In this document: piece after piece, positions 4,724 through 55,618 of the stretch
How positions within the stretch are numbered: the stretch's first letter is position 1
How the letters are laid out: each line of letters opens with the position of its first letter
Virus record (IMG/VR): IMGVR_UViG_3300029171_000001
Direction: 5' to 3' (one strand)
DNA from: a virus
DNA length: 64,000 nucleotides
The notes under the pieces: model-generated
Seen by the model: the letters and a program-made list of their open reading frames with translations, nothing else
Database searches by the model: none
What the model was told of the DNA's origin: nothing
Position numbers and translations under genes: made by a program

Positions 4724-5176
4724 TTACCAATTAAGTTTTTTAGCAGTGTTTTTAAATATCTCACATACTTGTTCGGAGATTTGAAATCTGTCCTTGTTTA
4801 AAGAGATAGATTTATAAATATCTCCATCTGCATGTCTCTCGGTTGCAGCCTTCCAATCCATCAACATTTCAATTAAATCGAAAATATCAAATCCATTTAT
4901 GCCATTTTCATAATGTTCTGGATGATGAGAATTGTTTGCATAATGATGATCTAAAGCTGGCTTAAGTTCTTTAAGCGATTCTTTATATTCAGGAGAACCA
5001 TAAGTAAGCCCTTTTAATTTTTCTGTAGCTTTATCAAACCACTCCTTTTCTGGATTTTCAAGTTTGGATTGATCATGTTTGTTTGCTCTATTTAAAAGTT
5101 CTATTGAAGCCTCGTTTAAAAGTTGAGCAACTCTTTTTATGTGTTTTAATGTATCAACTGTACTATCGTATGACAT
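4724..5176 (-). CDS. DUF5662-like protein (HD-like)
   Basis: HDQSKLE, HHYANNSHHPEHY, DLIEMLMDW motifs; start re-set to MSYDST. Confidence 0.7.
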   Translation of the reverse strand: MSYDSTVDTLKHIKRVAQLLNEASIELLNRANKHDQSKLENPEKEWFDKATEKLKGLTYGSPEYKESLKELKPALDHHYANNSHHPEHYENGINGFDIFDLIEMLMDWKAATERHADGDIYKSISLNKDRFQISEQVCEIFKNTAKKLNW

Positions 5177-5225
5177 ATTTTTTTGTTTATATAAAAATAT
5201 AAACAAAATATAACAAAAACAAATT

Positions 5226-5771
5226 TTAATTTTTTGTACTCAACATCAAATCCTTCACATTCTGCACACAAAATCCATGACCTTCTCTTCTGATCAATTC
5301 ATAAATCACCCCTGTAAGCTCTGACGGTTTTGTAAACACTTGCTCTAACCCTGGGCACTTCAACGGTTCTGGAGATAAAAATTCACCATACCCCTTATCT
5401 TCCCACTCTTTCATTGTTGCTGCAACATCATCAACCTGAAACGCCATATGGTGAATTCCGCCTACACCATCTCTTGCTTTTACCCAATCTCCGACGATTG
5501 AATTCTCTTCACCATCTGATATGAAAATTTCTGGAGCCACATGATAGACCTGGTTAATATCGCCAAATGGAAAGTTTATTGCCCAAGGCAAATTCTCGCT
5601 CACCTTTTCAGATGGCACAAGCACAAGACAATTGGCCTCTGTACCATCATCAAATTGTAATTTAAAGCCATCTGGAAGATCTTCAGCAATTTTATACCCA
5701 AGGCAATCAACAAAGAATTGGGCTGTTTTATGACGGTTTTTGACCCTGTAGGCCACGTGGTCTAATCTCAT
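5226..5771 (-). CDS. VOC/glyoxalase superfamily protein
   Basis: LDHVAYRV, GIHHMAFQVDDV, C-terminal YELI. Confidence 0.8.
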   Translation of the reverse strand: MRLDHVAYRVKNRHKTAQFFVDCLGYKIAEDLPDGFKLQFDDGTEANCLVLVPSEKVSENLPWAINFPFGDINQVYHVAPEIFISDGEENSIVGDWVKARDGVGGIHHMAFQVDDVAATMKEWEDKGYGEFLSPEPLKCPGLEQVFTKPSELTGVIYELIRREGHGFCVQNVKDLMLSTKN

Positions 5772-27444: not shown

Positions 27445-27474
27445 TTTGCTTCAATGTAGTCATAGCCAGGGTTG

Positions 27475-27531
27475 TTAAAGCTTAAAGCCCCTGGCTTGCT
27501 ACTTGAGCAAATATCGAATTGATAATTTCAT
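27475..27531 (-). CDS. putative leader MKLSIRYLLK-TAG-QARGFKL-TAA
   Basis: After TATTTATA; TAG at the base of an AGCCAGGG/CCCTGGCT hairpin. Confidence 0.45.
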
Positions 27532-36261: not shown

Positions 36262-36282
36262 ATATTTTAAAGAACATTTTTG

Positions 36283-36354
36283 AGATCCATGTCGGGTTCG
36301 AACCGACGACCTTGGCTTTTAGAGGGCCTTGCTCTGCCGCTGAGCTAATGGATC
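36283..36354 (-). tRNA. amber suppressor tRNA (CTA anticodon)
   Basis: GATCCAT/ATGGATC, U73, GCTC/GAGC D-stem, loop CTCTAAA, 3-bp anticodon stem plus mismatches. Confidence 0.8.
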
Positions 36355-36360
36355 ATTTTG

Positions 36361-36435
36361 AGCAGGAGGATGGAATCGAACCACCGTCCTCTGATATTGC
36401 GTATCAGCGCTTGCAGCCAACTCAGCTACTCCTGC
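36361..36435 (-). tRNA. second tRNA-Cys(GCA)-like with A32/C33/U38
   Basis: GCAGGAG/CTCCTGC, U73, CTGAT-ACGCAAT-ATCAG. Confidence 0.7.
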
Positions 36436-36440
36436 TTTTG

Positions 36441-36511
36441 TGGGGGAAGATGTTAACGAAACATCGACCTTCTCTCTTGCGAAAAACGCTCTTCAACTGA
36501 GCTATTCCCCC
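36441..36511 (-). ncRNA. tRNA-like RNA with CGCAA anticodon region
   Basis: GGGGGAA/TTCCCCC+A, GCTC/GAGC, TTTTC-GCAA-GAGAG, T-loop TTCGTTA. Confidence 0.6.
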
Positions 36512-36557
36512 TGGTGGAGAGCAGATCACTTAAGACCCTAACTTTTCAGCACTCTCC
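36512..36557 (-). ncRNA. mini-tRNA 3 (46 nt, CCA), copy of mini-tRNA 2
   Basis: Differs from 35937-35982 only in the loop (GAAA vs GTAA). Confidence 0.75.
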
Positions 36558-36756: not shown

Positions 36757-36999
36757 TCAAGAGGTTTTTATTTTATAGATGAAGTGATTTGTGTTTGGCA
36801 TATAACCTTTACCACTTCTATCAAAGAACATTTTGTTTTGCTTATTATCTTCTACTACAATTGCTTCATCAGTTAAATCTATTACCACCCACCAATGTTT
36901 CCACTCTACAGTTGGATTTATTTCATCAGTTGCGCAAGATATTGCAAGTAGTTGACTTTTTACTTTATCACCAATTTTAATATTTGTCAAATTAATCAT
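36757..36999 (-). CDS. hypothetical protein
   Basis: 80-aa ORF. Confidence 0.65.
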   Translation of the reverse strand: MINLTNIKIGDKVKSQLLAISCATDEINPTVEWKHWWVVIDLTDEAIVVEDNKQNKMFFDRSGKGYMPNTNHFIYKIKTS

Positions 37000-37262
37000 T
37001 AGTAAATTTGTGCTATTGTTTCATTGTTGTTTTCGTAAATCTCAATTCTTCCCTTGAATTGAATACTGCCCTTTGTTGTTGGATTTTCTGGAGTTTCTTT
37101 TGTTGAGAATCCAATTTGAGAATCAACATGATTAACATAATAGGTTTGACCCTTGTGCTTGATTGTCCACATCGGAATAGAAGGATCCGATAAATGTCCC
37201 TTGTTAAAGTGGAACACAATTCTACTAACTTCTTCAGATTGCATTATGATTTTATTTTCCAT
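36999..37262 (-). CDS. hypothetical protein
   Basis: Start re-set to MENKII. Confidence 0.7.
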   Translation of the reverse strand: MENKIIMQSEEVSRIVFHFNKGHLSDPSIPMWTIKHKGQTYYVNHVDSQIGFSTKETPENPTTKGSIQFKGRIEIYENNNETIAQIY

Positions 37263-37644
37263 CTGCAACCTCCTTTCCATGAAAATTTTGAAAAGCTGAA
37301 GTATACTCTCTAAACGCCAACGGCAAGTTTGAGGTAAGCCTTTTCGCCTCTTCAGATGGCTCCAACGCAATAGCTGTTAAAGCATCGTTAAAGTCTGGCT
37401 CGGTAAACGCAGAACATAAAATGCCCCTTGTTTTAGCTTTAAATAATAATTCTTGTAATGATTTTTCGTTCTCGCAAGAAAGAAGAACGATATGATTGGA
37501 TTTGAAATACCAATCGTTTTGAACAACTTCGTGTTCTTTTTGAAATTGCTTGCCAGCATGGACAAGCTGAGCACCTTGAGCTCCTGGGTGGAGGTCTCTC
37601 CTGGTGATGAGGATCAATTTTGATTTGTCGTTAATCTACAACAT
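37252..37644 (-). CDS. Pth2-like peptidyl-tRNA hydrolase with in-frame TAG at codon 3
   Basis: LITRRDL..GAQGAQ..HA, IVLL, FTEPD, TAIALEP, LT.NLPL; ATG TTG TAG ATT AAC in frame upstream of the TTG at 37617. Confidence 0.75.
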
Positions 37645-37708
37645 AACTTTTCTTTTTTTATTTTTTACTCAGAGTTTATAAATATGAGTAAATTTTGTTT
37701 TTAGTATC

Positions 37709-37738
37709 TTATACGCACAAAGGTAATACAAAGTTTCA
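37709..37738 (-). promoter_or_regulatory. promoter TGAAAC-N17-CGTATAA with TACCTTTG
   Basis: Same architecture as the array-1 and array-2 promoters, followed by TATTTATA at 37677-37684. Confidence 0.7.
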
Positions 37739-37784
37739 TCTAAATGCAAATATTTTTTGAATTTTTATTGTAAGTTATTGGTTA

Positions 37785-54124: not shown

Positions 54125-55618
54125 TTAAAACAATAATGCCATAAAATAAATTTTGTGCTTAGCCCTAGACACGGCAACGTAATGAATATTCCTTGGCTCT
54201 AAATCTTCTTCATCATTCGGATCAAAAGTCAATTTATCCCTCTGTTTCTTTGTTAATTTTGCTGCGCTTGGATTTGCATCTAGCATATAAGGTGGTATTG
54301 AATTTACTATTACAGTGGTATCAAATTCTCTACCCTTTGATTTATGTATAGTAGTGATAAATTTATTTGATTTTTTATGCATCTCAATAAAATGAATCAG
54401 ATCATTAGGTGTTTCAAAGTCATTTTTAAACATATTGAGCTTTGTTTTCAAACTTTGCTTTATATCTCCAGCATGAAAGTCTTTAATATCTGAAGCTGTT
54501 ATGTAGTTGTGATACCTCATTGGAATTTTCTTTTTTAAAAGTATAATTTCCAATTTTTTTATCACATCATTTGTTCTCACAAGAACAGCAACTTCTTCTG
54601 GGAATTTAAGAACTTCCACTAATTCATCAATAGTCAGCATCAATTTGTCATCAACAAAACCATCTTCTTGACTATTCGCCACAGCTTTTAAACCAGAAAA
54701 TTGATTTGAGTTTTTTACAATGTTTTGATCGCTTCTAAAATTTACAGACAAAGACATCTCTATTGTATCTCTTCTGTCCTTTATCATTTCTTCTAACTTA
54801 GCACAGTTGGCACCACTATAAGAATAAATACTTTGATATCTGTCGCCAATTAAATAATAATAATTAGCATTCAATGCCAAAAGAATTTGTAGTTGTATTG
54901 TACTTGTGTCTTGATATTCGTCAATAAAAATATAATCGTACTTGCCTCTAAATTGCTTTAAGTATTTATCTTCCTTAAACAAATCACGAACCTCAATCAA
55001 CATATCAGAAAAATCTCTGGATTTTGTTTCACGCAAAAAAGCTCTATACTCATTAATGTAGTCTGGAACCTTAGCTTTAATCCCATCTGCTGATTGCAAT
55101 TTAAATGCCGCTATTGCAGAGGATAGATACTCATGCTCATCATAAAGTATGCCTATGGTTTCGTAATAAAATGATTTTGTAGCCTGGTCAGCGCTTGGTT
55201 TTGGCTTATACTTATCTCTGAACCACTCAACGAACTGATAAAAAGTTGCTATTTTTTTAAATTTTCCACACTTTGATAATATACCCATACAAAATGCGTG
55301 AATGGTAGTAACCATAATGTCATCATTACCAATGCGCTTTGTTAATTCTTCAGTGGCAGCTTTAGTGAATGAAAAAAATATAATTCTAGAAGGATCCACT
55401 CCACGTCTAAGCAACTCCTTTAACCTTTTTGTACAAGAATAAGTTTTTCCAGAACCAGCTGTAGCAGCCAGAACAACAGAAGAATTTCCGCTGTAATTTA
55501 TAAAATTCTGTTGTTCTGGTGTGTCTGGTTTATTTTGTACATCTGGGACTTCCGAAAGCAAGCTCAATTGTAAAGAATCCTGCTGTGGTTTTTTTACAAC
55601 AATTCTCTTTTTTGCCAT
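54125..55618 (-). CDS. uvrD: UvrD/Rep superfamily-1 helicase
   Basis: ATAGSGKT, FIDEYQDT, GDRYQSIY, NFRS, TIHKSKGREF, YVAVSRA. Confidence 0.9.
   Translation of the reverse strand: MAKKRIVVKKPQQDSLQLSLLSEVPDVQNKPDTPEQQNFINYSGNSSVVLAATAGSGKTYSCTKRLKELLRRGVDPSRIIFFSFTKAATEELTKRIGNDDIMVTTIHAFCMGILSKCGKFKKIATFYQFVEWFRDKYKPKPSADQATKSFYYETIGILYDEHEYLSSAIAAFKLQSADGIKAKVPDYINEYRAFLRETKSRDFSDMLIEVRDLFKEDKYLKQFRGKYDYIFIDEYQDTSTIQLQILLALNANYYYLIGDRYQSIYSYSGANCAKLEEMIKDRRDTIEMSLSVNFRSDQNIVKNSNQFSGLKAVANSQEDGFVDDKLMLTIDELVEVLKFPEEVAVLVRTNDVIKKLEIILLKKKIPMRYHNYITASDIKDFHAGDIKQSLKTKLNMFKNDFETPNDLIHFIEMHKKSNKFITTIHKSKGREFDTTVIVNSIPPYMLDANPSAAKLTKKQRDKLTFDPNDEEDLEPRNIHYVAVSRAKHKIYFMALLF

Follow-up and report, generated by a model that had tools for sequence, protein, structure and literature searches.

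A candidate amber gate on a phage PTH2-like gene and its linked suppressor tRNA

Autoregulation of prfB, the gene for RF2, works through an early in-frame UGA that is passed by a +1 frameshift with the aid of an internal Shine-Dalgarno site and a slippery CUU. In Streptomyces, the bldA tRNA-Leu(UUA) gates adpA and other TTA-containing genes, and the lambda bar minigenes consist of AUG-AUA-stop. The UUA/adpA case is discussed in PMC10732093. For phages with recoded stop codons, it has been proposed that expression may be timed by tRNA availability (Borges et al., bioRxiv 10.1101/2021.08.26.457843); the word hydrolase is absent from that preprint. A synthetic feed-forward "leak dampener" places amber codons in a target and co-expresses the suppressor tRNA, which together form an AND gate (PMC7969014). 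In the genome paper of phage XacN1, targets for its CUA tRNAs could not be found (PMC5852040). Full-text searches found no paper that links a PTH2-like gene, an early in-frame stop and a suppressor tRNA.

The DNA analyzed here (the window) is a stretch of 64,000 nucleotides from virus record IMGVR_UViG_3300029171_000001, which belongs to a giant freshwater phage. The third codon of its PTH2-like gene is an in-frame TAG, and a tRNA gene with the anticodon CUA follows downstream. The layout is common to dozens of distant phages, some of them cultured. It probably acts as an amber gate, such that the PTH2-like protein would be made only while the phage tRNA-CUA overrides the stop; genes with the early stop are called gated below.

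The early stop codon and the start of translation

The initial annotation had described an ATG at 37644 that is in frame with a hydrolase and is followed by TAG at 37636-37638, and the sequence confirms this. Read directly on the minus strand, the gene opens with ATG (37644-37642), TTG (37641-37639), TAG (37638-37636) and ATT (37635-37633), and the frame past the TAG is open until TAA at 37254-37252, encoding 130 residues if the TAG is read (Table 1). The product called by ORF finders from TTG 37617 has 121 residues. The start-proximal stop in the PTH2-like gene is real and far above chance. In the window, an ATG no more than eight codons before an upstream TAG occurs for 3 of 87 long frames. 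The TAG at codon 3 is not a sequencing error, because three independent metagenome assemblies share ATG-TTG-TAG (L012-L014, 96-98% identical). Contigs from two further independent DNA studies cover the start region, and none of the differences listed falls at 37636-37638. A contig from an RNA library, belonging to a relative about 93% alike, spans 37394-37757 and cannot show transcription. The exact 42-base pattern has no match in IMG/VR, and deposited phages include no close DNA-level relative of the window. Two other candidates were rejected. A second start-proximal TAG, at 54201, is an out-of-frame ATG...TAG in the tail of an upstream helicase-like gene. A 6-bp hairpin over ATG-TTG-TAG and another at ~37664-37692 show modest folding (z = -2.2), the first is not kept in L001, and no RNA structure is proposed.

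Table 1. Coordinates of the PTH2-like gene, its start region and its neighbours in the window
Feature	Position	Strand	Basis or remark
PTH2-fold gene, ATG through in-frame TAG, 130 residues + TAA	37252..37644	-	sequence, Pfam, fold
ATG start codon, A-rich leader 5' of it	37642..37644	-	sequence
In-frame TAG, codon 3, proposed gate; next base A	37636..37638	-	sequence and relatives
TTG used as start by ORF finders; not kept as start codon in relatives	37615..37617	-	ORF calls, relatives
orf87, 87 residues, ATG overlaps end of PTH2-like gene	36999..37262	-	partner gene kept in several clades
80-residue gene between orf87 and tRNA block	36757..36999	-	conserved only within the window's clade
tRNA-Cys(GCA), directly upstream of suppressor	36360..36435	-	ARAGORN
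Phage tRNA, anticodon CUA, amber suppressor, ARAGORN label Pyl, discriminator apparently U	36282..36354	-	ARAGORN

The comparison set consists of 86 related loci from viral and metagenome contigs, with 38 distinct genes in the window's clade. All 38 have an ATG, zero to seven sense codons (most often one) and an in-frame stop 5' of the domain, at protein identities from 98% down to about 30%. Homologues, to which the initial annotation had looked for a conserved TAG, thus bear it out: the stop is TAG in 35 genes and TAA in three, TGA is never used and a sense codon is found in none. Some database proteins have Q at the stop position. In a database look-up, P0003 and P0028 translate only with TAG=Q, and because they do, Q at this position is counted as TAG; the opening residues of P0007, which has an apparent Gln there, are the same as those of locus L020, which has TAG. 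These proteins appear to be more gated examples, not counter-examples. Directly behind the stop, 30 of the 38 gated genes have A and the other 8 have G, a purine in every case, compared with 48% purine after the genuine stops of three genomes. Amber suppression is more efficient with a purine at +4; for supE, the gain on going from C to A is about ten-fold (PMC6266110). The purine fits selection for readthrough, although a conserved Ile/Val would produce it equally; 36 of 38 genes have ATT, ATA, GTA or GTT as the codon behind the stop, and the other two have ACT or AAC.

The position of the translation start is indicated by the codons on both sides of the stop. GGAG-type Shine-Dalgarno motifs lie 5-8 nt before the upstream ATG in L024, L027, L040 and L041, whose hosts use such sites, and Yersinia phage fHe-Yen9-03 has GAGGA, 7 nt and then ATG-TCT-CAC-TAG-ATT. 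Ribosomes probably start 5' of the stop because these motifs precede the upstream ATG at normal spacing. The codons right after the stop differ synonymously among relatives (AAT/AAC, TCA/TCG, TTG/CTA/TTA), and because the changes are synonymous they appear to be translated in the domain's frame. At the position of the TTG at 37617, close relatives have CTA, TTA or TTG. Past the stop, an ATG, GTG or TTG first comes at +25 codons in a 154-kb relative (G001) and at +52 codons, well inside the fold, in a complete 180-kb relative (G003). The protein would then contain residues encoded 3' of the stop, with initiation at the upstream ATG.

The linked suppressor tRNA and the genetic code

ARAGORN finds 21 tRNA genes in the window. 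The tRNA-CUA is on the same strand as the PTH2-like gene, 1282 nt after its TAG and between two tRNA-Cys genes, in agreement with the CUA tRNA that the initial annotation had placed about 1.3 kb downstream in an apparently shared operon; no terminator-like site was found between the two genes on the minus strand. The pairing of tRNA-Cys and tRNA-CUA recurs in L015-L018, L021, L045 and L047. The anticodon stem of the window's tRNA-CUA is weak, with A27-A43 and C31-A39. In L013, which shares 96% identity with the window, ARAGORN calls one more tRNA at 2581-2653, just before the Cys-CUA pair; its anticodon is UUA. The orthologous stretch in the window, at ~36440-36512 (minus strand), gives no tRNA call and differs only in the anticodon region (loop around TTCGCAAG), and because the two differ only there, the anticodon loop of this tRNA gene appears to be variable in near-identical phages.

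A suppressor tRNA was detected with 27 of the 38 distinct gated genes, in most of them no more than ~1.5 kb away. In almost every locus of sufficient length it is near the gene, as a rule on the same strand. A TAG stop is accompanied by a CUA anticodon in 23 distinct genes and a TAA stop by a UUA anticodon in three; one gene combines TAG with UUA, which can read UAG by wobble, and TAA with CUA only is found in none. In a maximum-likelihood tree, the TAA/UUA loci (L008, L036 and L039) are at three separate places among TAG/CUA loci, and L036 is nested in a well-supported, otherwise TAG clade that includes L005, a locus with a CUA tRNA. This covariation of stop and anticodon is the strongest argument, drawn from the sequences compared, that the linked tRNA decodes the stop. 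The 27 gated genes with a tRNA thus have what bldA-type control has, a dedicated tRNA and a conserved cognate codon in its target. The bodies and discriminator bases of the suppressor tRNAs vary widely among lineages, and because they differ so greatly, selection appears to maintain decoding of the stop rather than one particular inserted residue. Similarity of the tRNAs, used for the inserted amino acid, gives inconsistent nearest isoacceptors (Trp, Lys, Gly, Glu and others). In L034 and L038, both gated, no suppressor tRNA is seen in 5-10 kb of flanking sequence, and in L006/L007 a distant upstream TAG is paired with a UCA tRNA on the opposite strand. Another possible target of the window's tRNA-CUA is located at 27470-27530 (minus strand), where ATG and nine codons are followed by TAG, seven codons and TAA, just before ATG 27444.

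The window, G001 and G003 are standard-code phages in which TAG is a rare terminator. TAG ends 3 of 69 long frames in the window, 10 of 138 in G001 and 14 of 173 in G003 (4-8%). No other internal TAGs are found in long genes of the window, G001 or the complete G003, and no window frame contains a TAG flanked on both sides by at least 60 residues. ORF coverage gains only about 3% in the window, G001 and G003 when TAG is translated as sense, no more than when TGA is. Among the hallmarks of code 15, the phage has a CUA tRNA, and neither many in-frame TAGs nor poor code-11 density is found.

The PTH2-like protein, its neighbours and its ungated relatives

The initial annotation named the product a Pth2-like peptidyl-tRNA hydrolase; the fold stands, and the enzyme name claims more than the data support. 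The protein matches Pfam PTH2 (PF01981) with 28.5 bits against a cut-off of 23, over profile positions 3-113 of 115. An AlphaFold model from 20 homologues has a pLDDT of 88.8, and in a Foldseek search of the PDB its top 14 matches are all Pth2 or Bit1 (E 5e-8 to 1e-4). The equivalog cut-offs for Pth2 are far from reached, with 23.3 against 82 bits for TIGR00283 and 21.9 against 126 bits for NF003314. The catalytic residues of Pth2 are reportedly the Lys of GKGK and the Asp of DAG, from work on the S. solfataricus enzyme. In a HMMER alignment to Pth2 of M. jannaschii (2zv3), the GKGK Lys is replaced by Ala and DAG by EPD, and the loop is shorter; His29, Glu82 and Pro83 are invariant and Asp84 hardly varies, with Glu at the position of the canonical Asp. 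An hhalign comparison with a canonical phage PTH2 places the loop differently, and the mapping of catalytic residues differs between the two alignments. Compared with archaeal and eukaryotic Pth2 (PF01981; PDB 3erj, 2zv3, 1q7s Bit1 and 1xty), the protein has the same fold (TM 0.66-0.78) and keeps the His-Ala motif as well as an acidic residue where strand 3 ends, whereas by the HMMER alignment the GKGK lysine is Ala, Ser or Tyr in the phage family and DAG has become EPD with a deletion of four residues in the loop. The family comprises 1971 representative clusters at E <= 0.001. One phage of 425 kb (L002) has a canonical ungated PTH2 in addition to a gated PTH2-like gene. The canonical gene, on a contig of L002 (L143, 190-600), has the GK and DAG motifs and an ordinary start. 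A specialised role for the gated protein is suggested because the same phage also has the canonical PTH2.

The gene that follows, orf87, encodes an all-beta protein with 247 database clusters at 56-94% identity, many of which lie on phage contigs 200-540 kb long. Its conservation exceeds that of the PTH2-like protein, after which it comes in the window's clade, L015-L018, L021 and L045-L050. Searches with orf87 gave no match in Pfam, PHROG or NCBIfam, no usable Atlas match and no fold match in the PDB; its weak matches in the AlphaFold DB are to unnamed proteins only.

In a sister clade, mostly from rumen samples, and in L044, L140 and L141, the PTH2-like gene has an ordinary ATG start and no in-frame stop, and a tRNA-CUA lies 0 to ~900 nt after the gene. 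The tie between the protein and the suppressor tRNA is broader than the gate, because these ungated relatives still adjoin a tRNA-CUA, and whatever links gene and tRNA does not require the gate. We think that the job of the protein may concern the consequences of suppression and that the gate may be an added control. In L140 the tRNA overlaps the 3' end of the ungated gene (2153-2541), and in L141 (gene at 5001-5414) the two are 7 nt apart. In L142 (5001-5419), the tRNA that abuts the gene has an 8-base anticodon loop, given by ARAGORN as "ttca", and could be an opal or quadruplet reader. Another ribosome-rescue element, a phage tmRNA, is found in L010 (953-1323) in the tRNA block of an ungated PTH2-like gene and a CUA tRNA.

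Cultured phages also have the cassette. In Yersinia phage fHe-Yen9-03 (L107/L144) the gated gene, at ~286826-287160, is unannotated, and a tRNA Sup-CTA is 3.4 kb downstream. In Tenacibaculum phage pT24 the gene opens with ATG-AAA-TAG-ATA, the annotated CDS is truncated and starts inside the domain, and a tRNA-Sup is 2.6 kb upstream. The pT24 frame (L106, LC168164 194.1-195.0 kb) continues past the PTH2-like domain for about 170 in-frame residues, a fusion to a further C-terminal part. Gp84 of mycobacteriophage Myrna, with GTG-TAG-GTG behind GGAGG and a CUA tRNA 130 nt downstream, is probably a gated example, an ambiguous one because its second GTG is also well spaced from the GGAGG. The Myrna CUA tRNA (L105, 2975-3046) is annotated as tRNA-Ser, an annotation slip. 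Gene callers systematically truncate, skip or mistranslate the gated gene. The cassette is directly testable in the cultured Yersinia and Tenacibaculum phages and probably in Myrna.

Proposed mechanism, rival explanations and known systems

According to the amber-gate model, translation would initiate at ATG 37644 and run into the UAG at codon 3. If the phage tRNA-CUA is lacking, RF1 would terminate after the dipeptide and no enzyme would be made. When the phage tRNA-CUA, which is probably co-transcribed with the gene, is made and charged, it would read the UAG and the PTH2-fold protein of 130 residues would be produced. Protein output would thereby be tied to suppressor activity in a coherent feed-forward or AND gate. 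This is the first of two alternatives in the initial annotation, in which full-length enzyme is made only when the suppressor outcompetes RF1, and it is favoured by the conserved stop, its match to the anticodon, the tight linkage and the lack of genome-wide recoding. We infer both that the tRNA-CUA is expressed and charged and what the gate is for. A suppressor that opens the gate should also read TAG terminators of the host, at a cost, which counts against the gate, as do the weak anticodon stem, the ungated relatives beside a tRNA-CUA, the UCA pairing of L006/L007 and the lack of a suppressor tRNA in the flanks of L034 and L038. As to the purpose, a tentative suggestion is that the hydrolase deals with acylated or peptidyl-tRNA species generated by stop readthrough and is therefore wanted only then. 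A further proposal, which is rather unlikely, is that the PTH2-like protein and the suppressor tRNA form a self-contained readthrough homeostat in a standard-code host. The hydrolase would be made only on readthrough and would act on the aminoacyl or peptidyl form of the tRNA or on readthrough products, and suppression would be held at a set level.

In a rival explanation, ATG-TTG-TAG would be a separate leader ORF, with the enzyme starting at the codon after the stop (ATT) by termination-coupled re-initiation that is independent of the tRNA. The ATT, ATA, GTA or GTT found after the stop in 36 of 38 genes is one base from ATG or GTG, and in Myrna a GTG stands directly after the TAG, 7 nt from GGAGG; however, two genes have ACT or AAC there, a conserved Ile/Val accounts for the ATN/GTN pattern equally well, and neither the match of stop type to anticodon nor the absence of TGA is explained, which makes direct re-initiation improbable. 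A sensor of RF1, in which host near-cognate tRNAs read UAG when RF1 is limiting or inactivated by the phage, in the manner of prfB and without a phage tRNA, is less probable than direct re-initiation. It would fit an early in-frame stop in a termination-related gene and a purine at +4, which also weakens termination, but RF1 reads both UAG and UAA, and the restriction of TAA to loci with a UUA anticodon is not predicted, nor is the tight tRNA linkage explained. Lower still is the probability of the second alternative in the initial annotation, a minigene of the bar type that causes drop-off of peptidyl-tRNA, senses termination or recycling stress and controls re-initiation at TTG 37617. The two-codon ORF is indeed shaped like lambda bar and the product resembles a peptidyl-tRNA hydrolase, yet the idea gives way at several points: the TTG is not conserved (CTA or TTA in relatives), some relatives reach the domain without a canonical start (none for 25 and 52 codons after the stop), the leader varies in length from zero to seven codons, the codons from the stop to 37617 are under protein-level selection, and a match between stop and anticodon is not predicted.

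The phage CUA tRNA, the small share of long window frames that end in TAG (3/69) and the translation of the gated gene with TAG=Q in some pipelines could mean that TAG is an ordinary sense codon and that code 15 is used throughout the phage. Against this, long genes of the window, G001 and G003 are free of other internal TAGs, TAG still ends 4-8% of genes, and a plain Gln codon would drift to CAA/CAG, which it does in none of the 38 genes; code 15 is accordingly very improbable. That the gene is a pseudogene or an assembly error is how annotators have in effect treated it, leaving it unannotated in fHe-Yen9-03 and truncated in pT24, but the chance of this is negligible given the TAG in three independent assemblies, a layout kept over 30-98% identity, a frame that is otherwise intact and a confident fold. 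The amber gate remains the probable explanation.

Suppressor tRNAs are common in large standard-code phages, and the cassette would offer a conserved natural target next door. Phages that use code 15, with TAG read as Gln, such as the crAss-like and Lak phages, likewise have a phage CUA tRNA that reads in-frame TAG in phage genes; theirs are many TAGs in many late structural and lysis genes, and the genome fails in code 11, whereas the present phage uses the standard code, with one conserved target found, an adjoining tRNA and a stop that is always in the first eight codons. The likeness to bldA is that a dedicated tRNA would control specific genes through one rare codon. In bldA the codon is a rare sense codon and the regulon is cellular and developmental, while here it is a stop codon read by a cis-linked tRNA in a phage. 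The lambda bar minigenes share the ATG-sense-stop opening and a thematic link to peptidyl-tRNA hydrolase; they stand alone, whereas here the stop is in frame with conserved codons that appear to be translated, and it matches the linked tRNA. As in prfB, a gene connected with termination and recycling has a stop early in its frame, and synthesis would depend on how that stop is decoded, but here the domain is read in the frame of the ATG, no shift is needed and a cognate suppressor tRNA is supplied. The homeostat, if true, would parallel RF2 autoregulation as a natural system based on a tRNA, and it would explain the "orphan" suppressor tRNAs of standard-code phages. The cassette would also be a natural translational AND gate of a kind built independently by synthetic biologists; the leak dampener is engineered, whereas the present cassette is natural and conserved.
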